The position numbers were made by a program, and so were the translations under genes. Below the pieces are notes generated by a model. The model did not search any database. It was not told the origin of the DNA and worked only from the letters and a program-made list of their open reading frames with translations. From the sequence record PZ809289.1: DNA of 64,000 nucleotides. One strand, given 5' to 3'. Positions 31,862 through 46,391 of the stretch are shown here, in pieces; position 1 is the stretch's first letter, and each line of letters starts with the position of its first letter. Source of the DNA: a phage.

Positions 31862-31898
31862 AGACCTATCAAAACAAACTAACCAAACGGAAATCAAA

Positions 31899-32123
31899 AT
31901 GAAAACTTATCAAGAATTTATCACCGAAGCTAAAAGACATGAAGATGAACTGCCAATTGTTACAAAAACCTTTGATGGCACACTGGCCGATTTTAAAAAA
32001 GTCCCTAGTGATAAGCTTGCTAAATTGACTGGCTCTATCAATGAAAAAGGTGGCAAGGTCACGTTTTCTGCTGGCGGCATAGCCAATCTTAAAAAACTTT
32101 TGAAAGCCGCTGGCGCTGAATAA
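31899..32123 (+). CDS. Internal-protein-like, capsid-targeting leader MKTYQEFITE
   Basis: N-terminal MKTYQEFITEA matches the T4 internal-protein capsid targeting sequence; early promoter upstream. Confidence 0.6.
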   Translation: MKTYQEFITEAKRHEDELPIVTKTFDGTLADFKKVPSDKLAKLTGSINEKGGKVTFSAGGIANLKKLLKAAGAE

Positions 32124-32124
32124 A

Positions 32125-32397
32125 ATGAAATCATACCAAGAATTTATCGCTGAATCTATTCTTAATGAGGAAGTAAAAATTAACAAATCTGTTAAGACTA
32201 TGATTGATGATATAAATCATCTCTATAACATCGATTTGACTAATCACGTAACTTTAGGCAATAAGCGAAACTTTTTTGTTTTTGATACTTCAGAACTCGA
32301 CCAGAATCAAATTAACAATATTGAACGTTTTGCTAATGAAAAAGGGTTGCGTCACGAAACAGCTGGTTATAAAAAGTATGCAATTTATCTAAAATAA
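32125..32397 (+). CDS. Internal-protein-like, leader MKSYQEFIAE
   Basis: CTS-like N-terminus. Confidence 0.55.
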   Translation: MKSYQEFIAESILNEEVKINKSVKTMIDDINHLYNIDLTNHVTLGNKRNFFVFDTSELDQNQINNIERFANEKGLRHETAGYKKYAIYLK

Positions 32398-32399
32398 TT

Positions 32400-32428
32400 G
32401 TTTACAAGGTCTATAGGTGTGATACTAT
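32400..32428 (+). promoter_or_regulatory. Early promoter cassette
   Basis: Same architecture as 31833. Confidence 0.6.
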
Positions 32429-32464
32429 AGACCTATCAAAACAAATGAGTGATTGGAGAATAAA

Positions 32465-32650
32465 ATGAAACGTTGTGAATTAATTAGAAATGTTACTGCA
32501 CTGGTCGCCGTTACTGCTTTTGGCTTTAGTATGTTTGCAGGATTCATGCTCGATATGCTTTCAACTTCCGAGAATATAATCTCTTTAGTAGTGGCATTTT
32601 TAATTGGTTCAATCTCTTTTGTTATGGATAAAATCTCTAAAGGTGAATAA
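32465..32650 (+). CDS. Small membrane protein
   Basis: Two hydrophobic segments; ATG 32465 with conserved leader GGAGAATAAAATG. Confidence 0.45.
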   Translation: MKRCELIRNVTALVAVTAFGFSMFAGFMLDMLSTSENIISLVVAFLIGSISFVMDKISKGE

Positions 32651-33057
32651 TGAACGTTGAATATTATGTATATGCGGATTATGAAAATAACCCGTCTAAA
32701 GATGAAGATAACCGTTTAGGTGTAGATGCTTTTGAATCCCCTTCTGCAGCTTGGCAATGGGTTGAAAGTACTGATATCCCTTATCGTTATATTGAAGTGG
32801 TAGACCAAGCAGGAAACAAGTATCCTAAGGAAGCATATGTTCCTTCTGGTAAAGTAAATTTCCTTCTGTTCGCAGGTGACAACTATTACCCACGTGGCGG
32901 CTATACCGATTTAATCGCTAAAGCATTTTCTGAAGACGAACTACGTGATATTATTAACGAAAATGAGAAAAAGCCTCGTTACGGTTCTAATCGTTTTGAC
33001 TGTGACTGGTGGCAGATTGTTAATGCTAATACCCATACTATTGTAGACGAGGGTTAA
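32650..33057 (+). CDS. Hypothetical protein
   Basis: 135 aa ORF, start overlaps upstream stop. Confidence 0.5.
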   Translation: MNVEYYVYADYENNPSKDEDNRLGVDAFESPSAAWQWVESTDIPYRYIEVVDQAGNKYPKEAYVPSGKVNFLLFAGDNYYPRGGYTDLIAKAFSEDELRDIINENEKKPRYGSNRFDCDWWQIVNANTHTIVDEG

Positions 33058-33348
33058 ATGCTATACGTTAAGGTTACTAATCCAGAGAATGGCTATAATT
33101 CAGACCAGGTTGCAGCAGAGCTACTGATTCGCAACTTTGGCAAAGGTGCTGTGCTTGATGTTCAACAGGTTAACATAGGTCGTAGTTCAAGCGATGTTAA
33201 ACTCAAAGTTAACAGCCATCGTTATAATTCTGTTAACTTTACTTTTTATACCGCAACTGAAAACGGATTGGTCGAATATGACATCTTTAAAAATCCTTTG
33301 AAGATTGCTTCTATTAAACTTGATTACATTAATATGTGGCCACAATGA
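33058..33348 (+). CDS. Hypothetical protein
   Basis: 96 aa ORF. Confidence 0.45.
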   Translation: MLYVKVTNPENGYNSDQVAAELLIRNFGKGAVLDVQQVNIGRSSSDVKLKVNSHRYNSVNFTFYTATENGLVEYDIFKNPLKIASIKLDYINMWPQ

Positions 33349-33521
33349 ATCAAATTTGACCAGACTATTCCTAAAAATAGTAATATGCTTTAAGAGTAAT
33401 GTGTTATTATTACTCTAACATTATTAAGTAACCCTCTATTACCAAAGGTTCTTCCCTCAAAGAACCTTTCATAATAGACAAGGTCTATTAATCAAACTTA
33501 CTTTACTTAATTTTATTTGAG

Positions 33522-33794
33522 GTGTTTATGTTAGTATTAAAATTAGCTTTTTACGACCCAGAAACCAAGACAACAACTACCAAACGTTGTTCTATTTCAT
33601 ATGAATGTCAATTTGGCGAAGTTGAGACTGATGGCGAGCCCTTTATGGCAATTGCCGATAGCACATTCGCTAAACCAAAAATAATTCCACTAGTTAACGC
33701 TGCGGCTTATCTGGTTGCTCCTGAAGAAATGACTTATCATACAATTCAGCACATGGCTAAAGATGATAATGCTCCTGCTGGATTTGTAGTTTGA
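33522..33794 (+). CDS. Hypothetical protein
   Basis: 90 aa ORF ending just before tRNA. Confidence 0.4.
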   Translation: MFMLVLKLAFYDPETKTTTTKRCSISYECQFGEVETDGEPFMAIADSTFAKPKIIPLVNAAAYLVAPEEMTYHTIQHMAKDDNAPAGFVV

Positions 33795-33799
33795 TTTAA

Positions 33800-33870
33800 G
33801 GCCCTGTAGCTGGACGGTCGAGCGAGCGACTCATAATCGCTGGATGGTGGTTCGATTCCACCCAGGGCCA
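33800..33870 (+). tRNA. tRNA with CAU anticodon (Met/Ile2-type)
   Basis: Hand-folded cloverleaf: acceptor GGCCCTG/CAGGGCC, anticodon stem AGCGA/TCGCT with loop CTCATAA, T-arm GGTGG-TTCGATT-CCACC. Confidence 0.65.
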
Positions 33871-33911
33871 TATTTTGAGAACATAAATACTCTTAGAAAT
33901 AGGAGATATTT

Positions 33912-34577
33912 ATGTTCCATTACACTTATAAAATAACAAACAAAATTAATAATAAAATCTATATAGGTGTCCATTCAACCGAAAATTTGAATGATGCATA
34001 TTTTGGTTCCGGTAAACTCTTGAAAAGGGCCCAGGCCAAATACGGTATAGAAAATTTCTCTAAAGAAATATTAGAGTTCTTTGACGATAAAATCTCTATG
34101 TTTGAGTCAGAAAAGAATATTGTGACTGAAGAGTTTTTAAAGCGCCCCGATGTTTATAATTTGAAATTAGGCGGTGAAGGTGGTTGGGACCATTTAAACA
34201 CCGAAGAATATTTAGATAAAAAGAAAGAAGCTTCCTTAAAAGGAGTTGCTGCTTTTAAAACCAGATTTGAGAACGACCCAGACCTTAAAGAAAAATATCG
34301 TAAAATGGGTTCAGAAAGGTTTAAACAACTTTGGGATAATCCTAAGTATAGAGAGAAATTTTCAAATACTAAATCTTTCTTGGGTAAGACCCATTCAGAT
34401 GAAACCAAAAATAAAATTAAAGAATCTCACGCCAGAAATAAACACCAACAAGGTGAAAATAATTCCGGATATGGAAAAATGTGGATTCATTCTTTAGAAG
34501 AAAAAGTTTCTAAACGTATTAACAAAACGGATATTATTCCTGAAGGTTGGAATAAAGGCCGTAAAATAAAATTTTGA
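33912..34577 (+). CDS. segB: GIY-YIG homing endonuclease, segB-like
   Basis: 221 aa; GIY-YIG motif (KIYIGVHS...YFGSG); between two tRNA genes as T4 segB. Confidence 0.7.
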   Translation: MFHYTYKITNKINNKIYIGVHSTENLNDAYFGSGKLLKRAQAKYGIENFSKEILEFFDDKISMFESEKNIVTEEFLKRPDVYNLKLGGEGGWDHLNTEEYLDKKKEASLKGVAAFKTRFENDPDLKEKYRKMGSERFKQLWDNPKYREKFSNTKSFLGKTHSDETKNKIKESHARNKHQQGENNSGYGKMWIHSLEEKVSKRINKTDIIPEGWNKGRKIKF

Positions 34578-34582
34578 ATTAC

Positions 34583-34657
34583 GTCCCGCTGGTGTAATGG
34601 ATAGCATACGATCCTTCTAAGTTTGCGGTCCTGGTTCGATCCCAGGGCGGGATACCA
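34583..34657 (+). tRNA. tRNA-Arg (anticodon UCU)
   Basis: Acceptor GTCCCGC/GCGGGAT + A + CCA, T-arm CCTGG-TTCGATC-CCAGG, anticodon loop CTTCTAA. Confidence 0.7.
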
Positions 34658-34659
34658 AA

Positions 34660-35000
34660 TGAAGACTATTATATAGTCAAGCCGTCGTATGAAGACTGAT
34701 TACCAGCATTCACCGGCGCAACAAACAAGAAACCGGGTCGCTACCGGTAAGTCGTCGGACTGATGTTCCCTGAGTAAGGACTGGCATTAACAAATCTTTA
34801 CGATCTGTTAACGTCCCCTTACATCACAGCAGAAACGGCGCACCGAATTATCGATTCGAGGAAATATCTTTGCCGTAAGCCGAGTAGCGTTTTTGACGGA
34901 ACGTTCGGATATGGTCGAGATATGGCCTTTTAAAAATATTGAGTGGCGTCAACTACTTAATAACCGGGTTCGAATCCCGGCGTTTCGTACAAACACTTGC
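34660..35000 (+). ncRNA. Possible tRNA-associated stable RNA region (T4 rnaC/rnaD-like)
   Basis: No ORF; T-arm-like CCGGGTTCGAATCCCGG at ~34966; by analogy with T4 species RNAs downstream of tRNA-Arg. Confidence 0.25.
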
Positions 35001-35039
35001 CTAGCAGGTGGAACCCCGACAAGGTTACCCTAGGTTAAA

Positions 35040-35067
35040 GGCCCTTCCGAAAGGTTGGGCCTTTTTT
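35040..35067 (+). terminator. Rho-independent terminator, repeat copy 1
   Basis: GGCCCTTCCGAAAGGTTGGGCC + T6. Confidence 0.6.
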
Positions 35068-35068
35068 G

Positions 35069-35076
35069 TATAAATA
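35069..35076 (+). promoter_or_regulatory. Late promoter TATAAATA upstream of 35104 membrane-protein gene
   Basis: tataaata immediately after terminator. Confidence 0.5.
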
Positions 35077-35103
35077 TGTAGTTAAACTAACCTAGGAAAT
35101 AAT

Positions 35104-35658
35104 ATGAAACTTTTAAAATATTTGAGTTGGGTACTGTTGGTTCCTCTAGATTTTATCTCTATGGTTCTGGCTGTTATCCTTGCACCATTTGTGGTTCCTT
35201 TCCACAATAAAAAGACCGGTAAATTGCCTTATGGCTTTGATTGGATGATGACATACGATAATCCAATTGACGGTGACAAAGGTCATATTAAACGTTGGGC
35301 TAAAATCAGGAAAATGCCAGGTGGTGTTTATCTCCAGAGAGTAGCCTGGTTATGGCGAAATAAAGCTTATAACTTTGCTTATCATAAACTTGGACGCGAT
35401 TGTAGTTCGGAATTCCATTATCGTGGTAATCCTGACGTAGAATCAGGTTCTCCTGATAAAGCTCATCATGGGTGGCTATGGATGTGGAATGACGACGCCT
35501 GGGGTGTATTTGCTTCAGTTCCTTATCTTAAGGTTGGTGGAATCACATTTTACCTTCGAGTGTACTGTGGCTGGAAGCTTAAAAGTCTTTTGTCTCGTAA
35601 AATCCCTAAGGCTATGTTAGCCTTCCACATAAACCCATTCCGGTTCTACAAGAACTGA
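35104..35658 (+). CDS. Membrane protein, late-promoter driven
   Basis: 184 aa, N-terminal TM segment, Trp/basic-rich; TATAAATA 27 bp upstream; flanked by identical terminator hairpins. Confidence 0.5.
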   Translation: MKLLKYLSWVLLVPLDFISMVLAVILAPFVVPFHNKKTGKLPYGFDWMMTYDNPIDGDKGHIKRWAKIRKMPGGVYLQRVAWLWRNKAYNFAYHKLGRDCSSEFHYRGNPDVESGSPDKAHHGWLWMWNDDAWGVFASVPYLKVGGITFYLRVYCGWKLKSLLSRKIPKAMLAFHINPFRFYKN

Positions 35659-35663
35659 TTCTA

Positions 35664-35692
35664 GGCCCTTCCGAAAGGTTGGGCCTTTTTTT
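35664..35692 (+). terminator. Rho-independent terminator, repeat copy 2
   Basis: Identical hairpin + T7. Confidence 0.6.
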
Positions 35693-35716
35693 GTTTCTAA
35701 AAGGTTTAAAAAAGAT

Positions 35717-35745
35717 GTTTACTCTTTCGTAGAACATGATACTAT
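35717..35745 (+). promoter_or_regulatory. Early promoter cassette
   Basis: GTTTAC, 17 bp, TACTATAGACCTATCAA. Confidence 0.55.
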
Positions 35746-35780
35746 AGACCTATCAAAACAACAGAGTGAAGGAGAGTAAA

Positions 35781-36044
35781 ATGGATAATTATGGTGAAGT
35801 GTTTAATTTCTTTATGAAATGCGTTCCTGAAGAATTTGGTGCTACTGTTAACGATATTAAAGTTATCGGCCCTGAACACCCGGTGTATGAAACCTATGCA
35901 GTAATGGGTAATGAAGATGGACAGTGGTATACAATTAAAGTTGTGATTAATATGTTCTCAGCTGAAGGTTACGCCAAATCGTCTACCAAAGTTTACCATG
36001 GTAATGATTTTGATGCAGAAAATTATTTCAATAATATGAAATAA
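35781..36044 (+). CDS. Hypothetical protein
   Basis: ATG 35781 after SD GGAGAG; early promoter upstream. Confidence 0.5.
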   Translation: MDNYGEVFNFFMKCVPEEFGATVNDIKVIGPEHPVYETYAVMGNEDGQWYTIKVVINMFSAEGYAKSSTKVYHGNDFDAENYFNNMK

Positions 36045-36047
36045 AAC

Positions 36048-36076
36048 GTTTACATGGGCTCATGATTAAGATATTA
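36048..36076 (+). promoter_or_regulatory. Early promoter-like cassette
   Basis: GTTTAC, 17 bp, ATATTA; IR TGGGCTCAT/ATGAGCCCA. Confidence 0.4.
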
Positions 36077-36102
36077 TGAGCCCATAATTTGAGGAGAACA
36101 TA

Positions 36103-36501
36103 ATGAATATCGAAGATAAAGAAATGCAAGAGTTGTATAATTCATTAACACCTGAACAACAAAAATATGCCAAAGAACTAGAGAAAGCTCTTACTTTCAA
36201 CTTGGCAAAAACTGATTGGGCCGCTATGTATGAAGAAAAAACTAGATTAGAACTTGAAGCCGTCGAAAGAAATGAATGGATTGTCGAAACCAAGATTTCT
36301 GATGGTGGTTGCTCTGTTGAGGTGTCAGCTGTAGTTAAAGGTACTCATGGTGAAAAATCATGGGGCTGGCATAATGAAGCAAACAAACATATTGTTCTCT
36401 CAACGTCAAAAACTTATGGCCAAAGGGCTCCTGTATCCAAAGCTATTATTAAGCAAGCTCAATGGGAAGCCAATGAAATTTGCCTCGCAAAAATGAAATA
36501 A
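36103..36501 (+). CDS. Hypothetical protein
   Basis: 132 aa ORF; early promoter upstream. Confidence 0.5.
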   Translation: MNIEDKEMQELYNSLTPEQQKYAKELEKALTFNLAKTDWAAMYEEKTRLELEAVERNEWIVETKISDGGCSVEVSAVVKGTHGEKSWGWHNEANKHIVLSTSKTYGQRAPVSKAIIKQAQWEANEICLAKMK

Positions 36502-36504
36502 AAT

Positions 36505-36534
36505 GTTTACAAACCTCAGAGGACAGGGTATAAT
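36505..36534 (+). promoter_or_regulatory. Early promoter cassette
   Basis: GTTTAC, 18 bp, TATAAT; IR GAGGACA/TGTCCTC. Confidence 0.5.
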
Positions 36535-36577
36535 GTCCTCATGGATTACAAAACGTTAACCAACTGAAGGAAATACT

Positions 36578-37171
36578 ATGAACACTTTAAAGAAAATCGT
36601 TGAATTCATCCGTTCTAAACTGGGTACTGCAATGGCTCAGAACCTGTCAATCGAAGACCAGTATACTAAAGCTGCTTCTACCCTGATTGATAAAATCACT
36701 GAACTCCAGACTGCTCATGTTAAGTCTGTGAATGAAGAAAAACGTATTCGTGCGTTGGCTAATGAAAAAGACCAACTGGCTGCTTCTAAAGAACGTGAAA
36801 TTCGTAAACTGATTGCCGAAGGCGCTGATGTCCAGGTACATGCTAAACTTGGCCTCCTTTATCGTCGTACAGCTACTCAGCTTCGTAAGAAAGCTGATGA
36901 TTATATCGAAATGCGTAATGAAATTAAACTGAAGGTTAAGGAACTTGATGACTCTCGTCAGGAACTGGCTGTTAAGCTCGAGTACATCCGTGAAACTCGT
37001 AATATGGCTGCCCTTGGTATTGCTACTGCCGATGATGTTGTTGAAATCGCTGCACTGACTAAGATTGATATTGAAGACACCCTACTGCGTGTAGAAACGT
37101 TTAAAGGCCCGCAAGTTGGAATGGATACGACTTCTGCCGATATCGACGACTACATTAATTCACTTAAGTAA
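36578..37171 (+). CDS. Coiled-coil protein (weak PspA/IM30-like pattern)
   Basis: 197 aa, charged heptad-rich sequence; similarity to PspA is impressionistic. Confidence 0.45.
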
Positions 37172-37219
37172 TGTTATTGGGAGACTTCGGTCTCCCTATT
37201 TGGAGGAGAGGAGAATATT

Positions 37220-37756
37220 ATGAGTTTATATGATAACCTTATATCAAATATTGATTGGTTTAAAAATAGTGGTCTTTCCCATGAAACCAATGCAGTTCTT
37301 TATAGAATTCGCCAAGACCTAGGCTATTCAAACGATTTCTTAAGCAGAACATCTAGCCGTGGCGATACTACCAAATTACCTTTTATTTTTGCTTTAGCTG
37401 AAGACCTTTCTTTTGAAGATGCTTTGGAAATTATTGACGTAAATCTGGCTATTCAACGAGTGGAATTCGCTGGACTACGTTATTCAGTATATTCTTTAAA
37501 CGAGAGCGCTGATTGTGTGCTTCTTAATATGGCAGACGATGATTACCATTTAGTATGCTATGTAGCTTTAGAAAATGGTGATGTATTTGGAATGGTTGAC
37601 CGTCGCCCATCTTACTCTGATATTAAAAATTACGATAAAGATGAGCTTATTATTTTGGCTAATGAGTACACATTAGAAAGTCGTAAACAACAACGTAAGC
37701 TTAATCGTTTTATTGCTGAATGTCGCGAATACGCTAAAGAGGTTCAAAATGCATAA
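37220..37756 (+). CDS. Hypothetical protein
   Basis: 178 aa ORF. Confidence 0.5.
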   Translation: MSLYDNLISNIDWFKNSGLSHETNAVLYRIRQDLGYSNDFLSRTSSRGDTTKLPFIFALAEDLSFEDALEIIDVNLAIQRVEFAGLRYSVYSLNESADCVLLNMADDDYHLVCYVALENGDVFGMVDRRPSYSDIKNYDKDELIILANEYTLESRKQQRKLNRFIAECREYAKEVQNA

Positions 37757-38102
37757 GCCTAGTAAAACCGACCCTGGTTACGCATTAGCAGATTACGATA
37801 TCTCTATTTCATTATTCCTCGGCATTGCTACTAGTATGACTGCAGGGATAATTGGATTTCTTGTCGGTGGGATTATTAATGGTATGCCTCGCCATCCGTT
37901 TGAAGATATGAGCCTCGCGTGGATTTGGGTTCCGGCTTTAATAGGATTTTTTATCCCATGGGTCTTTGATATTGCCCAAACTAATAAAATAAACAAGCCA
38001 CGTAAAAAGAGATATGCTTTAGCTATGGCTAATTATAATGAGTATGTAAAACAAACTAAACGTAATGACCTTGAAACCTTTATTAAGGAATGTAAATCAT
38101 GA
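37749..38102 (+). CDS. Membrane protein with C-terminal ...FIKECKS tail
   Basis: ATG 37749; hydrophobic segments; shares C-terminal motif with 41973..42566. Confidence 0.5.
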   Translation: MHKPSKTDPGYALADYDISISLFLGIATSMTAGIIGFLVGGIINGMPRHPFEDMSLAWIWVPALIGFFIPWVFDIAQTNKINKPRKKRYALAMANYNEYVKQTKRNDLETFIKECKS

Positions 38103-38389
38103 ATAAAATTGAAATTGAAATCCCGGAACACAATGACGAGAAATCTGCAGAAAAGGCTATCTATGCTCTTCTGAATAAAGTGAATACCATCGAACATGAA
38201 TGTGAAGCTATTGCCGATAAGTATGGTATCCAATTCGGTACTGGTGATTATGGTTCAGGCCGTACATATTATCCTGTCGGTTATGAATGCTCCCAGTGGT
38301 TTAAAGATGAAATTGAAAACAACGGTGGTGAAGTTGAAAATGGCGTCGTTACAGTTGGTGCTTGGATCTCCTCTTCGGCAATGTGCTAA
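38099..38389 (+). CDS. Small protein, paralogue A of C-terminal-Cys family
   Basis: 96 aa; ends WISSSAMC. Confidence 0.55.
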   Translation: MNKIEIEIPEHNDEKSAEKAIYALLNKVNTIEHECEAIADKYGIQFGTGDYGSGRTYYPVGYECSQWFKDEIENNGGEVENGVVTVGAWISSSAMC

Positions 38390-38398
38390 GGAAATTTT

Positions 38399-38680
38399 AT
38401 GATGAATGATTACCATAAAAATAAAGAGCTGGCTGACGCAGTAAATGATATCCACAAAGCTATTCGTCGTGCTGAGGAAATTGCTGACAAATATGAGACT
38501 CATTTTAATATATACCCTGCTCGCGGTATGGGCGGTGACTATTATTCTCCTGGCGCCTTGAAAGCCGACCTTGCCCACTGGGAAGAATACGGTGAAGCTC
38601 AGTACGCTATTGTAAACCAACATGATTACACTACCAGCCTAGAAAATGGTGGTTGGGTGTCCTCTTCTTCTGAATGTTAA
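38399..38680 (+). CDS. Small protein, paralogue B of C-terminal-Cys family
   Basis: 93 aa; ends WVSSSSEC. Confidence 0.55.
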   Translation: MMNDYHKNKELADAVNDIHKAIRRAEEIADKYETHFNIYPARGMGGDYYSPGALKADLAHWEEYGEAQYAIVNQHDYTTSLENGGWVSSSSEC

Positions 38681-38689
38681 GGAAATAAA

Positions 38690-38902
38690 ATGACTATTGA
38701 TGAAATTGAAAACCAAATCCGTGAATTAGTACGTAAAGGCCAGTCTGTGGCTGACGAAACGGGTGAAGAGTTCCGTGTTTCTGGTCGTGGAGAATACATT
38801 TCTCCAAAGAACCCGGAATATGATGATTACGAATGGGTCCGTGATGACTACGGTATTCCGGAAGGTGAAGGTTTCTGGTTTACATCCTCTATGTCTTGCT
38901 AA
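38690..38902 (+). CDS. Small protein, paralogue C of C-terminal-Cys family
   Basis: 70 aa; ends WFTSSMSC. Confidence 0.55.
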   Translation: MTIDEIENQIRELVRKGQSVADETGEEFRVSGRGEYISPKNPEYDDYEWVRDDYGIPEGEGFWFTSSMSC

Positions 38903-38913
38903 GGTGATAAAAA

Positions 38914-39138
38914 ATGTCTGATATTAATGAATTAGAAAAAGCTGCACTTGAACTGGCTGCACTGTATAAGAAAGTAAAAGATATGGCTTCTGCTCAAAGT
39001 TTTGGTGTTGAGCTCGACGATTATGACGGTGAAGTTCGTCTCGAAGATTGGCTGAATAGCTCGTGTTATGGCGAAGAAGCTGGTCGCACCTTCGTTGCTC
39101 GGGCCGATGGTAAAATCTGGTATCCGAGCTCATGCTAA
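38914..39138 (+). CDS. Small protein, paralogue D of C-terminal-Cys family
   Basis: 74 aa; ends WYPSSC. Confidence 0.55.
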   Translation: MSDINELEKAALELAALYKKVKDMASAQSFGVELDDYDGEVRLEDWLNSSCYGEEAGRTFVARADGKIWYPSSC

Positions 39139-39359
39139 AATTAAAGAAAAGATACATTCGTAAAATAAATGGTCTTCGCGATTATGCCAAAGGTTGGCCG
39201 TTAAGTATTATTATGGCTGATAGACACCCGCGTTATAATACTGAGATGACTTATTACAAAAAGTACGATTCATATTGTCGGTCTAAAGCAGGTCGTTTAG
39301 ATGGTTCTTATGAAGACTATTTCGGTAAAAAACCTACTCGTATTTCGTTAGGAAAATAA
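39132..39359 (+). CDS. Small basic hypothetical protein
   Basis: 75 aa ORF. Confidence 0.4.
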   Translation: MLKLKKRYIRKINGLRDYAKGWPLSIIMADRHPRYNTEMTYYKKYDSYCRSKAGRLDGSYEDYFGKKPTRISLGK

Positions 39360-39368
39360 TTTAACCAC

Positions 39369-39719
39369 ATGGATGTGGTAGGAGGACTTATGCATAAAGA
39401 TTCAGTATTCAAATATCTTTTGAAAACAAATAAAGAATTCTATATGAATGGACAGGCCTTCTTGTTCGTTCGTGGTAAACGTGAGATGTTTTACAAATGC
39501 GACCTCTCAATGCACCATCATATGTATCACACCCGCGGTGAGCCTATACTGGGGTTCTCTGGTGACGAGACTAGACACATAGCTATGTACTACGACCATT
39601 TTAAGCTCAATGATTGTGGTGACAACGCTTTGGTCTGGAACCCGTCTTGGCGTCGTTGGGATACAGTAGACAATGATAAATTATTTTTAGAATATTGCAG
39701 AAGTGATGTACAACTCTAG
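39369..39719 (+). CDS. Hypothetical protein
   Basis: 116 aa ORF. Confidence 0.45.
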   Translation: MDVVGGLMHKDSVFKYLLKTNKEFYMNGQAFLFVRGKREMFYKCDLSMHHHMYHTRGEPILGFSGDETRHIAMYYDHFKLNDCGDNALVWNPSWRRWDTVDNDKLFLEYCRSDVQL

Positions 39720-39762
39720 AAAATCATGTTACTATTACCCTACACAAACATGAGGAGAACAT

Positions 39763-40002
39763 ATGTGGTATTACGCTCCGATGTCCGATAAGTCTAATGA
39801 ACCGGTACGCATTACTCGCGCCAAGTTTAAAAAGATTTATGGCTTCTCTTATAAGAAGTCTGATTACGGTGTTCGTTTTGAAGATGCCCACTGTATCAAT
39901 GACCCTTATGCTGAAGAAATCTCTAATGAGATAATTCCTATCATTAAGAATAATTCTGATGATATGTGGGAATTGCATAACGATTACGTCGCTGAAATTT
40001 AA
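39763..40002 (+). CDS. Hypothetical protein
   Basis: 79 aa ORF with SD. Confidence 0.45.
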   Translation: MWYYAPMSDKSNEPVRITRAKFKKIYGFSYKKSDYGVRFEDAHCINDPYAEEISNEIIPIIKNNSDDMWELHNDYVAEI

Positions 40003-40021
40003 GTTTACTGAGGAAAATATT

Positions 40022-40981
40022 ATGATGTTAGTTATTGGTTCTCGTGCACTGCACCACGCTGGTCTGATTGAAAGTAAGCATATCGAAAATTCTGATTGGG
40101 ATTTCATTGCCGACCAAGGCTCATGGAATCACTTTAAAGCACGTATGTTCGGCGCCCATGTACACGTTGACAATCCTGATGTCCAGGCTTTCAAATGTAT
40201 GCATAATGGTAAAGAAACCTATTTTGAAGCTTATATCGTTCGTGCTCTGACTAACGTACGAGAAATTACCGGTGAGCTTCAAGACGAAGATTTCACTTCA
40301 AGCTATCGTCTCCTGAAATATGCTGAAAATCATATTAAAAAGGACCGTCTTACTGGTTTCTATTGGGCCACCCCTGATATCTGTCTGGCTATCAAAACCT
40401 CTCATCGTTTCCTTAAGAATAATCCGTTCTTCTTGAAAACCATGTCCCACATCAAATACCTTCGTAATAAAGGTATCACCCTTAACGAAGAACTCCAGGA
40501 AATTATGTTGCAACGTCAAAAAGAAACGTTGAGCTATTCCCACCCTAAATTGGATGTAAACAAATCATCGTTCTTTAATGATACCATTTATACGCTGGAC
40601 CATGACTCTATTCATGAAGCAGTGGCATTGGCAGGGCGCCCTGCATATACCTTTTATATGAAGGAAGGTTCTGAAGTCATGACCTCTCGTGAGAAGTTCG
40701 AGGCTTTGCCTGAAGCTATTAAACTGGCTGGTGTATATGAAGAAACTTGTGTCCTGGCACTAGAACGTTCACAGGTTCCTAATGACTTCAATATTTCACC
40801 ATCATTAAGTTTTTATATGGCTCTTGAGAAAGTGTGTACCTCAATCACTTCAGGTTGGTTCCGCGAGTACGCCTGGGAAAACTACCAAGCTGTAGTGAAT
40901 ATGTATAAGACTTTAGGTGAAAACGACTACATTGAACGGTTTAAGCGTAACCAACATTTAATTCGTCCTTTCGAAAAATAA
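40022..40981 (+). CDS. Hypothetical protein with possible N-terminal nucleotidyltransferase-like motif
   Basis: ATG 40022 after SD GAGGAAAA; N-terminus VIGS...SDWDF loosely resembles GS...DxD; weak. Confidence 0.5.
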   Translation: MMLVIGSRALHHAGLIESKHIENSDWDFIADQGSWNHFKARMFGAHVHVDNPDVQAFKCMHNGKETYFEAYIVRALTNVREITGELQDEDFTSSYRLLKYAENHIKKDRLTGFYWATPDICLAIKTSHRFLKNNPFFLKTMSHIKYLRNKGITLNEELQEIMLQRQKETLSYSHPKLDVNKSSFFNDTIYTLDHDSIHEAVALAGRPAYTFYMKEGSEVMTSREKFEALPEAIKLAGVYEETCVLALERSQVPNDFNISPSLSFYMALEKVCTSITSGWFREYAWENYQAVVNMYKTLGENDYIERFKRNQHLIRPFEK

Positions 40982-40993
40982 TTGCACAAAACA

Positions 40994-41022
40994 GTGTACA
41001 AGGTCTATAGGTGTGATACTAT
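40994..41022 (+). promoter_or_regulatory. Early promoter cassette (-35 variant GTGTAC)
   Basis: Same body as 31833 and 32400. Confidence 0.5.
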
Positions 41023-41059
41023 AGACCTATCAAAACAACAGAGTGAAATGGAGAATAAA

Positions 41060-41272
41060 ATGAAACTTTCTAACCAAGCAATCAACATGTTAAACGAAGT
41101 TCGTGCAGCTGGTGCTAAATGCCTGATGGTTAACACTCGTGACGGTGACCTTCGTCAAGCATTTGGTGAATTGAAATCTGCTGACCTGGTTAAATGTTCA
41201 GTTGGTATTGGTAACGCACTTCGTGTATCCTTATCTCCTAAAGGTAAAATGTACTTTTTCAACAAAAAGTAA
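41060..41272 (+). CDS. Small hypothetical protein
   Basis: ATG 41060 after conserved leader GGAGAATAAAATG; early promoter upstream. Confidence 0.45.
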   Translation: MKLSNQAINMLNEVRAAGAKCLMVNTRDGDLRQAFGELKSADLVKCSVGIGNALRVSLSPKGKMYFFNKK

Positions 41273-41286
41273 GTGAGGAAAATATT

Positions 41287-41973
41287 ATGAACGGTCCGAA
41301 AACTTTTAATTCTAAAGCTCGTGCAGTAGGTGGTTTTGCAGGTCATATTTCTAATGATGATATTAAAAACGAGCCTATGTTCTTTAACTGTGATTTGAAT
41401 TTTGCTGCACAAAATGGTGGTCCTATTACTCGTAGCTTTATTACTAATCTCCCTGATGAGTGGAAAGCCGTTGAATGCGTATTTGATTCCCGTGTACACA
41501 TGTTAATGCCCGGCTGGTACCCTGCAATTCCAGGCTTCCACCATGATGATGTACCCCGTCCGGATATTCCGGTTGGTCAACACTTTATTACCGCAGGGCA
41601 ACCTGATTATGATAATCCTCGATACCATTCTGAACATATTCTTGGTCTTGTTAACGCTGATGTGTGTCCTACTCATTTTGCAACCGGAACTGCCCAGTTC
41701 AGTCAGATTCCTGAAGGCGAACTTATCTATCGCCAGTGGCATAAAGAAGTTCTGGAAAAAATTGAGTCTAATGAATTAACTAAGTGGGATGCTCCTGACC
41801 GCACGTTGCTCCAGTTTGATTGGCAGACATGGCATACAGGTTCTCGTGCAGTAAGTAACGGTTGGCGCTGGTTTGGTCGTGTGTCTCGTAATACAGACCG
41901 TGTTAAAAAGATTACAAATGAAATCCGCGTTAATGCTCAAGTATATCTGGAATTTCCTATGGAGGGCTGGTAA
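41287..41973 (+). CDS. Hypothetical protein
   Basis: 228 aa ORF. Confidence 0.5.
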   Translation: MNGPKTFNSKARAVGGFAGHISNDDIKNEPMFFNCDLNFAAQNGGPITRSFITNLPDEWKAVECVFDSRVHMLMPGWYPAIPGFHHDDVPRPDIPVGQHFITAGQPDYDNPRYHSEHILGLVNADVCPTHFATGTAQFSQIPEGELIYRQWHKEVLEKIESNELTKWDAPDRTLLQFDWQTWHTGSRAVSNGWRWFGRVSRNTDRVKKITNEIRVNAQVYLEFPMEGW

Positions 41974-42566
41974 TGGCCCTTTATGAACCTGGATGTATGG
42001 GTATTGATACAAACTTCATCCGTCGGTCGGAAAATGCCGGAATTATTATCCCAAGTGGTGAACATATGATTATTAAAAAGTCCTGGCGAAATATCGATGA
42101 CGGTGATGAAGGAATTTCAGCCAGTACAATAGATTGGTCAGGTTGTACTGCCGAAATGAAACAGCTTTTAATTGAGGAGTTCAGAATGGGTTATATCGTA
42201 AATGGTTGGCAACCGGTAAAGAAAATCACCCGCACTGACGATAAGTATATTTGTCTCCAAGATGGAAAGGCTAAGCTCATTGATACTGAATGGCTTACGT
42301 TCGGACGATATGTTGTAGCGTATTTTATTACTTTACTTCCAATGATAGTGTTGAGTTCATTTTTAATCGACGCCAATTGGAATGATGCGCTAGAACGAAC
42401 TATTATTGGTGCGGGATTAATGAACCTTTTCACCGCTGGAGCTGCTTTAAGTATTTGGTGCTTGGCTATTGAAATGCCATGGCGTTTACGTCGTCAACAA
42501 CGTCTTTACGACGAAGGTAAAAACAAACATAATTTAAATGAGTTTATTAAGGAATGCCGTAAATGA
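41973..42566 (+). CDS. Membrane protein with C-terminal ...FIKECRK tail
   Basis: 197 aa; C-terminal TM segments and same tail motif as 37749..38102. Confidence 0.5.
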   Translation: MALYEPGCMGIDTNFIRRSENAGIIIPSGEHMIIKKSWRNIDDGDEGISASTIDWSGCTAEMKQLLIEEFRMGYIVNGWQPVKKITRTDDKYICLQDGKAKLIDTEWLTFGRYVVAYFITLLPMIVLSSFLIDANWNDALERTIIGAGLMNLFTAGAALSIWCLAIEMPWRLRRQQRLYDEGKNKHNLNEFIKECRK

Positions 42567-42799
42567 GTATTGCAATTTATATTAAATCTGAGTCATGTGA
42601 TTCTTATCTGTATTCCTATGATACCGGAACGTCAGAAGAGAAAATCAAAGAAGATTTAGAAAGCGACTTGGGTATGTTCTGTCCTATTGGTGACTATATG
42701 CTTCAAGTGTCTGATAGTGAAAGTCCATCATCAGAAAATAGACTTCAAATTATTATGCAAGATATTTTTAAACAATCATGGGAACGAGACGATGAGTAA
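42563..42799 (+). CDS. Small acidic hypothetical protein
   Basis: 78 aa ORF; start overlaps upstream stop. Confidence 0.45.
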   Translation: MSIAIYIKSESCDSYLYSYDTGTSEEKIKEDLESDLGMFCPIGDYMLQVSDSESPSSENRLQIIMQDIFKQSWERDDE

Positions 42800-43241
42800 G
42801 AAAGCTAAGGAATTATCGGCAGGTATTTTGTTCATGACCGTTGATAAAGAACTGGTCATGGGTCGTGTAACAGGCTCTCGTAATCCAGAGAACATGCGTC
42901 ATAAATGGGACATTCCTAAAGGCCATGTCGAACCAGGCGAAGAGCCTATTCAAGCGGCAATGCGCGAAACCGAAGAAGAGATTGGATTCACAGCATACGA
43001 TCCTGCATTCCTGAAAGACCTAGGTGAGTTCAAATATTCAAGCAATAAGAATCTACATCTGTTCTTATATACGGTGCCTGTGGAACACGAGCAGTTCAAG
43101 GATTGCAAATGTACGGCTTACCATACGTTCCCTGATGGTCGTACTATTCCTGAATTCGATGCTTTTGCCTTGATTAAACGTCCGCAATGGGAATATGTCA
43201 TGGGCCCGTCGATGTTTAAGGTTTTAGATTCGCTCTTTTGA
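42792..43241 (+). CDS. nudE: Nudix hydrolase NudE (e.1-like)
   Basis: Nudix box GHVEPGEEPIQAAMRETEEEIG; immediately upstream of e as in T4; start ATG 42792. Confidence 0.8.
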   Translation: MSKKAKELSAGILFMTVDKELVMGRVTGSRNPENMRHKWDIPKGHVEPGEEPIQAAMRETEEEIGFTAYDPAFLKDLGEFKYSSNKNLHLFLYTVPVEHEQFKDCKCTAYHTFPDGRTIPEFDAFALIKRPQWEYVMGPSMFKVLDSLF

Positions 43242-43269
43242 TATAAATACCTCCTATACTCAGGAGGTA
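43242..43269 (+). promoter_or_regulatory. Late promoter TATAAATA plus SD-sequestering hairpin upstream of e
   Basis: tataaata followed by inverted repeat CCTCCT...AGGAGG containing the SD. Confidence 0.65.
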
Positions 43270-43271
43270 TT

Positions 43272-43766
43272 ATGGATATTTTTGATATGTTACGCCTTGA
43301 TGAAGGCTGTAAATTAGACTTATATAAGGATACTGAGGGATACTATACTATTGGTATTGGCCAATTGATTACTAAGAATCCTTCTAAAGATGTTGCTCGG
43401 GCTGAACTTGATAAGCTTATGGGCCGGGTTTGTAACGGACGTATTACTATGGCTGAAGCCGAACAACTTTTTAACAGGTCGGTTGAAAATGCTCGTAGAG
43501 CTATTCTGCGTAATCCTAAATTGAAACCTGTTTATGATGTACTGGACGAAGTTCGTCGTTGTGCTTTAATTAACATGGTATTCCAAATGGGTGAAGCAGG
43601 TGTAGCTGGGTTCACTAACTCTTTACGTATGCTCCAACAGAAACGTTGGAATGATGCGGCAGTTAACCTGGCTCAATCCCGTTGGTATAAACAAACCCCT
43701 AATCGTGCTAAGCGCGTGATTTCTACATTTAAAACAGGTACTTGGAAAGCATATGAAAACTTATAA
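43272..43766 (+). CDS. e: Endolysin (T4 lysozyme E)
   Basis: 164 aa; [32 protein letters not shown]...[22 protein letters not shown] matches T4 lysozyme. Confidence 0.95.
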
Positions 43767-44151
43767 TGAATTTATCGCAGAGAATGTAATTCCTGCATCT
43801 AAAGAACTTTTGGCAATGTTCGAATCTGAAGAGTTCACTGAAGAACTGAATGAGAATCTGACCCAGGCCACTCCTCAGGTTATTCGCGTTCGTAATGCCC
43901 TTCAGACAGGCATGCAGGCTCGCGTCTCTAAGACTATGAAGCTGGCCTTCACCACTTCTAAAAATGAAGACTACGGTGATGGTATTGCAATGAACACTGG
44001 ACAGTATTATGTTGAGTGGAATGGCGAAACCGGTACTGCTAAGATTCGCCAAACCAGAGCAGCGGGTGGTAAAATGTTGGACATTAAACTGAACGTTAAA
44101 GAGAAAGACGTCGCGGCTTTGTTCAAGAATTGGATGAAGACCTATAAATAA
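43753..44151 (+). CDS. Internal-protein-like, leader [10 protein letters not shown]
   Basis: CTS-like N-terminus; adjacent to e where T4 carries ipIII/ipII. Confidence 0.6.
44143..44150 (+). promoter_or_regulatory. Late promoter TATAAATA upstream of ipIII-like gene
   Basis: tataaata adjacent to early promoter. Confidence 0.45.
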
Positions 44152-44180
44152 GTTTACATCTCCTAGAATTGTGATAGTAT
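44152..44180 (+). promoter_or_regulatory. Early promoter cassette
   Basis: GTTTAC, 17 bp, TAGTAT. Confidence 0.45.
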
Positions 44181-44233
44181 ATCTACAGTTACTTGAACAG
44201 ACCAATTAAAATATTTTCCTTTAAGGAACCCGT

Positions 44234-44830
44234 ATGAAAACGTATAAAGAATTTATCGCCGAAGCTTCTGTAGGAAAGGTCCAAGGCATTAATAAAGATG
44301 AGTGGACTTACAAAGGAAACGGCGTTGACAACCCAGGAAACGGTTTTGACGCTAAAACAGCTCCTATTGAACGGTACTTGGCTACAAAAGCTTCCGACTT
44401 TAAAGCTTTCGCCTGGGAAGGACTTCGCTGGCGTAACGACCTAAATATTGAAGCTGATGGACTTAAATTTGCCCATATCCAAGATGTTGTTGCTAGTAAC
44501 TTGGACGCAGCTTTTGTTAAAGCTGACGGTGACCTTCGTCGCTGGAATTTAAAACTGTTCTCTAAACAGAAAGGTCCTGTATTTGTACCTAAAGCAGGTA
44601 AATGGACTATTGATAATAAATTGGCTAAAGCAGTTAACTTCGCTGGTCTTGAATTTGCCAAGCATAAATCCGCATGGAAAGGTCTTGATGCAATGACTTT
44701 CCGTAAAGAATTTGCCGATGTTATGGCTAAAGGCGGCTTTAAGGCAGAAATAGATACCTCTAAAGGTACGTTTAAAGACGCTAATATTCAGTACGCTTAC
44801 GCCGTTGCTAATGCAGCCCGTGGTAATTAA
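44234..44830 (+). CDS. Internal-protein-like, leader MKTYKEFIAE (ipIII-sized)
   Basis: 198 aa, CTS-like N-terminus, basic; late and early promoter motifs upstream. Confidence 0.6.
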   Translation: MKTYKEFIAEASVGKVQGINKDEWTYKGNGVDNPGNGFDAKTAPIERYLATKASDFKAFAWEGLRWRNDLNIEADGLKFAHIQDVVASNLDAAFVKADGDLRRWNLKLFSKQKGPVFVPKAGKWTIDNKLAKAVNFAGLEFAKHKSAWKGLDAMTFRKEFADVMAKGGFKAEIDTSKGTFKDANIQYAYAVANAARGN

Positions 44831-44854
44831 TAAAGCCGATACTTGATAAAAGTT

Positions 44855-44905
44855 GTTTACATCTCCTGTAGTCATGATACTATAGACCTATCAACTACAG
44901 GAGAT
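44855..44905 (+). promoter_or_regulatory. Early promoter cassette with flanking IR, upstream of denV
   Basis: Arms ATCTCCTGTAG/CTACAGGAGAT; second arm contains SD. Confidence 0.6.
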
Positions 44906-44910
44906 TAAAA

Positions 44911-45318
44911 ATGACTCGTATCAACCTTACCTTAGTATCTGAATTGGCTGACCAACACTTAATGGCTGAATATCGTGAATTACCACGTGTTTTCGGTGCA
45001 GTTCGTGAACGTATTGCCAAAGGGCAAGGCTTCTCTGATATCCCTAAAGACTTCCGCCTTGGTTCAGGGCACGTCAAGTTCTTTTATGACAAAATTGGTT
45101 TTTTGTTCTTGCGACAAAATGCAATAATTGAGGAACTTCTGAAGCGTGGTTACCAGATTCAAAATACCCATGTAGACGTAGCGGATATTCCATTACGGCT
45201 TATGAACGATTTCACTCCAACCGAAGCTGATATAGCTTTAAGCCAAGCTCGTCTGGATGAAAAAATTGCACAGCGTCCTACCTGGTACAAACATTATGGC
45301 AAGGCTATTTACGCTTAA
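44911..45318 (+). CDS. denV: Endonuclease V (pyrimidine dimer glycosylase) DenV
   Basis: 135 aa; [32 protein letters not shown]...[26 protein letters not shown] near-identical to T4 DenV. Confidence 0.95.
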
Positions 45319-45361
45319 TTAAATCCGTGATAGAATACTTCTATCAACTTAAGGAATAACA

Positions 45362-45661
45362 ATGAAAACTTATCAAGAATTTATCACAGAAGCCAAAGCT
45401 CCTAAAGCATTTCAAATTGGAGTTCAAGGCAATTTAGACCAAGAATATGTTGATGCTATTGTAGCAAGCCTCGGTAAACAGGGCGTACAAGTCGATTTTG
45501 TTGATTTTACCAAAGGTAATACTTTTAATATTGTTACATCTAAAGGTTCTTTAGCTAAAGTTAAAAAGGCCTTTGGCGTAGCACAAGCATATGAAATCGA
45601 CCACTCCGAATTAGAAAATAAAGGTCGCCAGAACACAATTAGAGGTTCTGGTTCTTTCTAA
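45362..45661 (+). CDS. Internal-protein-like, leader MKTYQEFITE
   Basis: CTS-like N-terminus. Confidence 0.55.
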   Translation: MKTYQEFITEAKAPKAFQIGVQGNLDQEYVDAIVASLGKQGVQVDFVDFTKGNTFNIVTSKGSLAKVKKAFGVAQAYEIDHSELENKGRQNTIRGSGSF

Positions 45662-45765
45662 TAAAGGCAAGCCGGCCCTCTCCTCATGAACGTCTAGTCC
45701 TCTGGGTGATGAACCCAAGGATGAATTATGTGCCAAGGATTAGTCCATAACTTAAAGAGTCAAAA

Positions 45766-46125
45766 ATGAAAACATATCAGCAATTTATTACTGAATCTAC
45801 CCAACGTATTAACGAAGCTATGTCGCCTGAACAGTTGGCTAAAGCTAAAGAAGGCCTGAACCCATCTGAAGTTTTTAAAGTTACAGGTAAAGACTTTGCT
45901 TCTATGGCCACTAACCAAAGCCTGGCTAAAGAACTTAAATCTAAATCTAACTTCATTCATGCTACATGGAATGGTGATTCTCTTACTTCAATAAGTGTGT
46001 ACAATAAAAAAGGTCTCCTTAAGAGTTCTTATGGCGCGGATGCCATCCGTGTTTCTAAATCAGATTGGCATAAAAACACTACTAAAGCAGAAAAACCTCA
46101 TAACCCGGCACTAGACCATCTTTAA
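45766..46125 (+). CDS. Internal-protein-like, leader MKTYQQFITE
   Basis: CTS-like N-terminus. Confidence 0.55.
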   Translation: MKTYQQFITESTQRINEAMSPEQLAKAKEGLNPSEVFKVTGKDFASMATNQSLAKELKSKSNFIHATWNGDSLTSISVYNKKGLLKSSYGADAIRVSKSDWHKNTTKAEKPHNPALDHL

Positions 46126-46133
46126 GGCTTAAT

Positions 46134-46391
46134 ATGAAAACTTACCAAGAATTTATTACAGAATCCACTTTAGTTTCTAAACGTTGGAATATGATTGTAA
46201 ACGTTAAACCTTCCGGCACTGAAGTTTCTATGGCCGACCCTAATGATGACGAACTTGAGCACGCTTTTAGCTCTAAAGAAACTGACGAGAAAGTGGTTAA
46301 GCAACTGGTTGCTGATGCAGATCAACTTCGTAAAGTAGCAGATGTTGTTAAGCTGTTTACTAAGAAAGGTTTTAAACACGAAGAACGTTAA
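46134..46391 (+). CDS. Internal-protein-like, leader MKTYQEFITE
   Basis: CTS-like N-terminus. Confidence 0.55.
   Translation: MKTYQEFITESTLVSKRWNMIVNVKPSGTEVSMADPNDDELEHAFSSKETDEKVVKQLVADADQLRKVADVVKLFTKKGFKHEER

Follow-up and report, generated by a model that had tools for sequence, protein, structure and literature searches.

Seven genes with a T4-type capsid-targeting leader at the internal protein loci of a Dhakavirus-like phage

The internal proteins of phage T4 (IPI, IPII and IPIII, or Ip1-Ip3) carry a tag that binds the scaffolding core and is removed by the gp21 protease, after which the protein is ejected with the DNA (PMC9026906). Experiments have established that this peptide suffices for packaging, GFP and nucleases being taken into the head by the tag alone, and the gp21 protease and the gp22 scaffold are encoded by core genes of all Tevenvirinae (PMC9026906). 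Each of Ip1, Ip2 and Ip3 blocks one distinct GmrSD type IV restriction enzyme with no cross-protection, and the remaining genes of the two Ip loci have been proposed to inhibit GmrSD likewise (Silas 2025, PMC12373910). Here we analyzed a 64,000-nucleotide (nt) stretch of phage DNA (PZ809289.1), referred to as a whole as the window, in which an open reading frame (ORF) listing and direct reading revealed seven + strand ORFs that open with the leader MK(T/S)Y(Q/K/N)(E/Q)FI(A/T)E. We consider it probable that these ORFs are T4-type internal protein (Ip) genes of a Dhakavirus-like T-even relative, the products of which would be injected and likely act against host defence.

Reportedly, Repoila described in 1994 the polymorphic ip gene set of T-even relatives, with types Ip4-Ip13, together with ip cassette shuffling of the kind seen in the window, and earlier work on internal-protein biology, in which leader fusions were loaded into capsids, is said to be that of Mullaney and Black in 1996. 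The locus analyzed here is typical and its biology is already known; what is new is three cargo families that public annotation misses as internal proteins, one of which is very rare. Packaged and injected anti-restriction proteins of other phages, likewise internal to the head and delivered with the DNA, include the Dar proteins of phage P1 and the propeptide-bearing ejection proteins of giant phages (SPN3US and phiKZ), the latter being cut after Glu by a prohead protease related to gp21 (PMC5694885). In contrast to the window, the targeting signals of the Dar and giant-phage proteins are different, much longer and show no sequence relationship to the T4-type leader.

Seven leader genes at the two ip loci

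All seven leader ORFs listed by a sequence-only reading of the window were found at their starts on the + strand. ORF1 (31899-32123, +) encodes an Ip8-type precursor of 74 amino acids (aa), with a predicted mature part of 64 aa and an isoelectric point (pI) of 9.6, and ORF2 (32125-32397, +) encodes an Ip9-type precursor of 90 aa (predicted mature part 80 aa, pI 6.8). ORF3 (43753-44151, +; 132 aa, predicted mature part 122 aa, pI 8.8) represents an unnamed leader-bearing family, and ORF4 (44234-44830, +; 198 aa, predicted mature part 188 aa, pI 9.5) is an IpIII (Ip3) orthologue. They are followed by ORF5 (45362-45661, +), an Ip7-type internal head protein precursor of 99 aa (predicted mature part 89 aa, pI 9.0), ORF6 (45766-46125, +; 119 aa) of a second unnamed leader-bearing family, and ORF7 (46134-46391, +; 85 aa, predicted mature part 75 aa, pI 6.1) of a rare unnamed one. 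The degenerate back-translated leader pattern occurred at exactly these seven sites in 64 kb, compared to none in 100 dinucleotide-preserving shuffles, and six-frame searches with looser leader patterns gave no eighth copy in the window.

The gene order in the window is 1, 57A, 57B, ORF1, ORF2 and trna.4, then further along the tRNAs, and further along again nudE, e, ORF3, ORF4, denV, ORF5, ORF6, ORF7 and vs.8. The T4 order is kept, with the leader genes filling the T4 slots of ipI and of ipIII-ipII, and both layouts, 57B-ip-trna.4 and e-ip-denV-ip-vs.8, match those of T4. The sequence-only reading had placed the genes next to 57B and on both sides of e/denV; they do adjoin 57B, but not both sides of e, as there is no leader gene upstream of e, while two lie between e and denV and three after denV. 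The window therefore has in common with T4 the 10-residue leader, the two loci and the promoter architecture, as well as the IpIII orthologue, but it has no IPI or IPII orthologue, six of its cargoes are unrelated to the T4 IPs, and it carries seven genes rather than three.

Leader ORFs were counted by one rule on fetched GenBank loci; the IMG/VR scan, which gives fragmentary stretches, was not used for per-genome counts. T4 has three such genes, as the earlier reading had stated, IPI being counted with a variant leader. There were 4 in JS10, 5 in each of LQ5 and Klebsiella phage Clarke_MM3, 6 in each of BF15 (Tequatrovirus) and ABTNLS3, 7 in ABTNLsp5 and 9 in WG01, and a blastn search with one 32-nt leader returned 2416 places in 1041 phage records. 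A set of seven is not unusual, as sequenced members of this genus have between 4 and 9 such genes, and many further Ip types have been known since 1994, so that the novelty implied for the larger set was overstated. The ip region was 92-97% identical to Dhakavirus genomes (JS10, WG01, QL01, LQ5 and ABTNLsp5) over the aligned pieces. As no one public record spans at least 80% of the 16-kb region, we regard the ip region as a mosaic.

Two of the junctions are very tight. The stop of ORF1 and the start of ORF2 are separated by a gap of 1 nt, and the ORF3 ATG sits within the last codons of the lysozyme gene e, the stop of which is at 43766. At 43753-43766 the end of e, GCA TAT GAA AAC TTA TAA, is also read as ATG AAA ACT TAT AA.., the start of ORF3. 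The lysozyme C-terminus is AYENL in the window and AYKNL in T4, and this K-to-E change makes the ORF3 ATG. Because the ORF3 start is embedded in the last five codons of e, the ORF3 leader and the conserved lysozyme C-terminus share bases.

The leader as a translated tag and a cassette junction

A leader repeated at recombining genes might be a conserved 30-nt DNA element at recombination junctions only, with the ORFs not translated from that ATG or their products not packaged. Across the seven copies, codon position 2 was invariant and position 3 the most variable, so that most of the variation fell at third positions and was synonymous; the four-fold sites in leader codons 3 and 9 carried 1.4-1.6 bits, almost saturated. 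Conservation was bounded exactly by the ATG and the Glu10 codon, and the 30-nt flanks on each side (~1.45 bits) were essentially unconserved. Every copy opens an ORF of 74-198 codons, Shine-Dalgarno-like sequences stand ahead of most copies, and the experimental sufficiency of the T4 peptide for packaging also argues against a mere DNA element (PMC9026906). The codon-position pattern, the exact boundaries, the ratio of nonsynonymous to synonymous substitution rates (dN/dS) of the ORF1-ORF6 cargo and the evidence from an ORF7 homologue, both described below, together show that selection acts on the leader as a translated peptide. An untranslated element at junctions, which the sequence-only reading had named as the case against itself, is excluded by the codon-position pattern and, for ORF1-ORF6, also by dN/dS values of 0.03-0.49, well below 1.

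The point in favor of the DNA element comes from the relatives, as homology between them breaks at the leader (five relatives compared). The presence, absence and order of leader genes vary among JS10, LQ5, ABTNLsp5, ABTNLS3 and WG01. For LQ5 and ABTNLS3, homology extends across denV and stops with the final base of the ORF5 leader (45391); it picks up again at 45749, which is 17 nt upstream of the ORF6 leader, indicating that in these phages denV is followed by a leader and the ORF6 cargo. In LQ5 precisely ORF3 (43746-44150) is missing, the breakpoints being 43745 and 44151; JS10 has IpIII and ORF3 in reverse order; and in ABTNLsp5 ORF6 lies ahead of ORF5. Breakpoints coincided with promoter/stem-loop elements only loosely (near 44151 and 44848). 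Since the cassette breakpoints fall at or inside the leader, the leader block acts as a recombination site, a role that, as cited in PMC3012670, was proposed by Repoila et al. 1994. This junction role is true too, as an additional role of the translated tag and not as a replacement for it, and we hold an element that serves the junctions alone to be extremely improbable. In the mechanism we propose, the 30-nt leader and the repeated promoter/stem-loop elements would supply short homologies for the insertion, deletion and reordering of cassettes between related phages.

As a translated tag, the leader has the residues that matter in T4. Tyr4, Phe7, Ile8 and Glu10 were invariant in all seven copies. 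In the amber-suppression genetics of T4 IPIII, residues 4 and 7 were assigned to capsid targeting and residues 8 and 10 to processing, with Asp10 blocking cleavage (PMC9026906). All seven ORFs have Tyr4 and Phe7 in an N-terminal 10-residue capsid targeting sequence (CTS), and at the sequence level all seven have a gp21 site with a hydrophobic residue 8 and Glu, not Asp, at position 10. The leader of T4 IPII and IPIII is MKTYQEFIAE, and that of T4 IPI is a variant of 19 residues, MKTFKEFTSTTTPVSTITE. The identification of the leader with the T4 capsid targeting sequence is borne out by these invariant, genetically mapped residues, by the same ip loci and promoters, and by the four of seven ORFs that belong to annotated internal head or virion families.

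The relatives differ from the window in whole cassettes. Escherichia phage WG01 (NC_031928, Dhakavirus wg01) has six of the seven window families, with identical ORF3, ORF4, ORF6 and ORF7 proteins. Unlike the window, its nine leader genes include three families absent here (one of 69 aa, an Ip7 of 102 aa at the 57B locus and one of 154 aa after the tRNAs), and it is without the window's ORF5 after denV. Salmonella phage ABTNLsp5 has seven leader genes like the window, six of them in window families, in a partly different order. By sequence comparison, the particular combination of cassettes in the window is matched by no single public record.

Leader genes outside the two classical ip loci were also observed, none of them in the window. 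In phage VEc74 (Tequatrovirus; L006 20001-20165), a 54-aa acidic low-complexity leader gene lies between 41 and 61. In the Dhakaviruses ABTNLsp5 (L003 7538-8002) and WG01 (L118 4403-4867), a 154-aa leader gene lies after the tRNA genes, and in WG01 a 69-aa leader gene overlaps the end of 57B (L118 1250-1459).

Cargo families and proposed function

BLASTP revealed no cross-similarity among the seven cargoes at E < 1e-3, and family-profile hhalign, in which the seven cargo families and T4 IPI and IPII were each compared with the 57 collected cargo families, revealed no relationship (top probability 14%). By these comparisons the seven cargo domains are unrelated to each other and to T4 IPI and IPII. 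The sequence-only reading had described unrelated mature sequences of 74-198 aa; the unrelatedness stands, but these are the lengths of the precursors, and the mature parts measure 64-188 aa after removal of 10 residues. None of the seven has a significant Pfam or NCBIfam family or an enzyme-like domain. Every one of the seven cargo proteins has a copy of 99-100% amino-acid identity in one public phage or more. When compared with homologues from other phages, the mature parts of ORF1-ORF6 gave dN/dS values of 0.03-0.49 (ORF1 0.11-0.19, ORF2 0.04-0.09, ORF3 0.03, ORF5 0.06-0.30), a range at which the cargo of these six is under purifying selection.

Four of the seven, ORF1, ORF2, ORF4 and ORF5, belong to families annotated as internal head or virion proteins, of Ip8, Ip9, IpIII and Ip7 type, respectively. 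ORF1 matched phrog_8765 'internal virion protein' (E 8e-27), and the corresponding VR5 gene carries the annotation ip8, 'similar to Ip8 of RB15'. ORF2 matched phrog_7673 'internal head protein' (E 5e-56), and its type is annotated ip9 in VR5, IME08 and WG01. ORF4 was 87% identical to T4 IPIII over the mature part (phrog_5341, E 4e-115), and its counterpart in JS10 is annotated ipIII. ORF5 matched phrog_2667 'internal head protein' (E 7e-43) and was 47-55% identical to members located in the BF15 57B locus; in WG01 the member of this type lies at the 57B locus and is annotated as the product of the Ip7 gene. In these Ip8, Ip9 and Ip7-type genes the window resembles the polymorphic T-even ip set (RB15, VR5/VR7, IME08 and WG01), and VR5 likewise has a tandem ip8-ip9 pair adjoining 57B.

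Unlike this set, ORF3, ORF6 and ORF7 bear the leader but have no Ip name in the public annotation examined; 'unnamed' here refers to that annotation, and one of the three may match an Ip type described by Repoila in 1994. All three are 'hypothetical protein' in nearly every annotated public record examined, a few records being without annotation, and one listed ORF6 homologue carries the label 'endonuclease repair enzyme'. ORF3 matched phrog_15461 'unknown function' (E 8e-92). Its leader-bearing copies, 91-99% identical, are found in ABTNLsp5, JS10 and ClarkeMM3, and it is also present in WG01; the annotations of JS10, ABTNLsp5, ABTNLS3, ClarkeMM3 and WG01 call it hypothetical.

ORF6 belongs to phrog_3966 'unknown function' and was found in 90 records, of which ~77 were at roughly 32% identity and some are Mosigviruses. 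A single-sequence search of a 5.8-billion-protein set with ORF6 returned ORF6 alone, and a profile including a distant Mosigvirus-type homologue was needed. A distant homologue keeps the leader but is missing residues 11-17 (STQRINE). Because these residues are absent there, are disordered in the ORF6 model and finish with an I-x-E motif, a further cleavage after INE17 is plausible, which would resemble the 19-residue propeptide of T4 IPI.

ORF7 is the rare family. It had no Pfam, NCBIfam or PHROG family, was found in 7 phage records, all identical, and formed only two clusters, both leader-bearing, in 1.84 billion representative proteins. There were no nucleotide variants among the phage copies compared. 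A homologue, P0003, is 50% identical and has the same leader, length and genomic position in an independent T4-like contig. The ORF7 alignment gave a confident AlphaFold model (pLDDT 92) with an orphan alpha/beta fold. Structure prediction, which had been proposed together with the sequence-only reading, thus yielded this model and one of ORF6, but no neighbor pointing to function: there was no credible PDB sequence match for ORF3-ORF6, no structural neighbor, solved or predicted, that hinted at the function of any cargo, and no informative neighbor in the fold searches with ORF6 and ORF7, in which BFVD returned only the WG01 copy of ORF7 itself.

In the mechanism we propose, the CTS would bind each precursor to the prohead scaffolding core, and the gp21 prohead protease would cut after Glu10, with ORF2 and ORF6 possibly cut again after LNE15 and INE17, respectively. 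The freed mature protein would stay in the head with the DNA and then enter the next host ahead of phage gene expression. Each cargo would most likely be a dedicated inhibitor of one host defence-nuclease variant. ORF4, as the T4 Ip3 orthologue, would inhibit a GmrSD type IV restriction enzyme, and the other six would be non-orthologous cassettes with a similar role. That the seven proteins are packaged, cleaved and ejected is thereby predicted from their leaders and from the T4 example, and an anti-defence function is suggested for ORF4 by its orthology and for the remaining six by analogy.

Several points weigh against this interpretation. The 64-kb window does not take in the genes for the protease and the scaffold, and the searchable literature gave no virion proteomics, cleavage data or phenotype for these seven proteins and no Dhakavirus virion proteome. 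ORF2 (pI 6.8) and ORF7 (pI 6.1) are not basic, unlike the classical T4 IPs, although in T4 the tag alone brings in cargo as different as GFP and nucleases (PMC9026906). A perfect late box was present upstream of ORF3 and ORF4 only, with early-type promoters alone for ORF1-ORF2 and ORF5-ORF7; T4 ipI and ipII likewise have only early-type promoters. The structure searches gave no link to IPI* or any known inhibitor, and orthology to a protein with a demonstrated GmrSD target was found for ORF4 only, the other six being without similarity to Ip1, Ip2 or Ip3. Finally, Dhakaviruses are reported to have a cytosine arabinosylation cluster and not T4-type glucosyl-hmC (PMC13326640). The host nucleases relevant to a Dhakavirus may therefore differ from those mapped for T4.

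The proteins might also be packaged as generic head components that neutralize DNA charge or help packing or ejection, rather than as specific anti-defence effectors. Like the classical T4 IPs, most of the mature proteins here (five of seven, pI 8.8-9.6) are basic, some 1000 IP molecules sit within the DNA of T4 (PMC3012670), and the missing link, in fold or sequence, to a known inhibitor fits such a role as well. It would, however, leave unexplained why the seven folds are unrelated, why near-identical phages show presence/absence polymorphism and why each cassette is under strong purifying selection; ORF2 and ORF7, which are not basic, do not fit it, and all three T4 IPs have specific GmrSD targets (PMC12373910). 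We consider generic head components unlikely.

Alternatively, the proteins could be injected effectors of which some of the six without a T4 orthologue act on targets other than GmrSD, in other defence systems or in host takeover. The diversity of cargoes is extreme: ~185 unique leader proteins were collected, which fell by clustering of this small sample into 57 mutually unrelated families of mature sequence. In addition, the leader heads a GNAT acetyltransferase domain passing the Pfam cut-off in environmental T4-like contigs, T4 itself packages an enzyme, the ADP-ribosyltransferase Alt (PMC9026906), and the DNA modification of Dhakaviruses probably differs from that of T4 (PMC13326640). On the other hand, targets are known for three Ips only, each of which inhibits a GmrSD variant, and Silas et al. 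expect this of the remaining Ip-locus genes as well; moreover, the seven window proteins are all without an enzyme-like domain. Such non-GmrSD targets are possible but somewhat doubtful. Only tentatively do we suggest that ORF3, ORF6 and ORF7 are unnamed injected effectors whose targets are perhaps not the GmrSD enzymes mapped in T4, and that the tag may load enzymes in distant T4-like myoviruses. The targets of these three could be nucleases recognizing the probably arabinosylated Dhakavirus cytosine, or unrelated defence systems. The interpretation of the seven ORFs as genes for T4-type injected internal proteins remains the one we prefer.

Expression signals, neighboring features and wider occurrence

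The promoter scan revealed early-type promoters (TTTACA/G, 16-17 nt, TA(C/G)(T/A)AT, with an upstream TG) ahead of ORF1, ORF4 and ORF5, the upstream regions of which recognizably match those of T4 ipI, ipIII and ipII, respectively. ORF2, ORF6 and ORF7 closely trail the preceding gene and have no promoter of their own. The ip8-ip9 pair is flanked on its left by a 47-nt, PeSL-like early-type promoter with an embedded stem-loop (31826-31872, +; GTTTACA-AGGTCTATAG-gcatgata-CTATAGACCT), which scans as TTTACA-16-TACTAT with TG and has the same architecture as the region upstream of T4 ipI. A second copy, 91% identical, forms the right flank of the pair (32393-32439, +) and is placed to drive the trna.4-like gene, and a third lies between ORF4 and denV (44848-44894, +). 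At the e-denV locus, a late-promoter box, TATAAATA, is present as an exact match upstream of the lysozyme gene e (43242-43249, +), as it is upstream of T4 e, and a late e transcript from this box would also cover ORF3. Upstream of ORF4, a late box TATAAATA (44143-44150) is followed by an early-type promoter (GTTTACA...TGATAGTAT; together 44143-44181, +), which is the layout of T4 ipIII. An early-type promoter, TTTACG-17-TAGAAT with TG (45308-45336, +), overlaps the end of denV upstream of ORF5-ORF7 and resembles the T4 ipII upstream region.

The promoter/stem-loop elements form a direct-repeat family of five copies (31826, 32393, 35710, 40987 and 44848; 47 nt each, 77-100% identical), in which an internal 10-bp stem (AGGTCTATAG...CTATAGACCT) is followed by TATCAAAACAA. 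They are scattered in the hyperplastic region, two of the five away from ip genes. The elements resemble those of PeSL cassettes, in which a repeated early promoter and stem-loop flank variable genes in a hyperplastic region (Arbiol 2010, PMC2839356; Comeau 2014, PMC4122927). All five elements fit the PST/T4 PeSL promoter consensus TTTACW-N17-TAYWAT (PMC4122927) with a 10-bp stem, and those at the ip loci flank ip8-ip9 and precede denV. They differ from the published PeSL, as we read it, in that the stem (AGGTCTATAG/CTATAGACCT) lies within the promoter spacer and -10 rather than beside the promoter as a separate stem-loop (terminator). The window also differs in that the leader itself gives the 5' junction for the promoterless cassettes ORF2, ORF6 and ORF7.

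The G+C-rich spacers after ORF5 and after ORF7 were considered as structured RNAs and rejected, as their folding energy was no better than that of shuffles (z about 0); the window gave no Rfam match beyond two tRNAs. Between the loci, 33800-34657 holds only these two tRNA genes (Met-CAT and Arg-TCT), compared to eight at the site in T4 and three in JS10, with a SegB-like, GIY-YIG homing-endonuclease-like ORF (33912-34577) between them. An identical 29-nt terminator-like hairpin with a T-run (AGGCCCTTCCGAAAGGTTGGGCCTTTTTT) occurs at 35039-35067 and 35663-35691 around a 184-aa ORF (35104-35658), and this bracketing suggests that the ORF is a self-contained inserted module. Four tandem ORFs at 38099-39138 (96, 93, 70 and 74 aa) share the C-terminal motif W(I/V/F)(S/T)SS..C or YPSSC and look like a paralogous family; their JS10 and WG01 counterparts are hypothetical proteins.

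Beyond cultivated phages, the near-unchanged leader heads ORFs of 100-480 aa in many uncultivated viral contigs, some of which have baseplate, RNA ligase, scaffold or PstS genes of T4 type as well. In seven IMG/VR contigs (L016, 10313, - strand; L020, 8979, - strand; L063, 4179, + strand; L037, L041, L047 and L069), an MKTYKQFITES... leader precedes a 110-aa domain that matches the GNAT family Acetyltransf_7 above the Pfam cut-off (29.2 bits vs 27). Because of the neighboring genes, a gp6-like baseplate wedge gene in L063 and L047 and a gp63-like RNA ligase gene in L041, these contigs appear to be from distant T4-like myoviruses that tag an enzyme for packaging. PHROG scans of the neighboring genes in two of the environmental contigs (L016 and L074) gave no useful information. 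In L021, L023, L032, L074, L085, L102 and other environmental contigs, 2-5 leader genes were clustered, with cargo as long as 482 aa and, in L021, leucine-rich-repeat-like repeats, and two environmental cargo families looked ADP-ribosyltransferase-like by eye, with Pfam support that was not significant. In a T4-like contig with an ORF7 homologue (L117), a 69-aa gene downstream of the ip cluster (7464-7673) had a weak Pfam match to Acb2_Tad1_hairpin, an anti-CBASS/anti-Thoeris sponge, which hints that further anti-defence genes may adjoin the ip locus.

With three of the seven labelled hypothetical, public annotation misses about 40% of the leader-bearing proteins in the window. The picture of how internal proteins work is unchanged by our results, which add members to it. 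The leader is a marker, readable from sequence alone, of proteins that a T4-like phage delivers before its genes are expressed, and the three such proteins of known function all disarm restriction enzymes. The window yields candidate first-strike anti-defence proteins of the Ip8, Ip9 and Ip7 types and of three unnamed families, which may bear on host range in Dhakavirus, a genus for which poultry, ducks and sewage have been the main sources of sequenced members.

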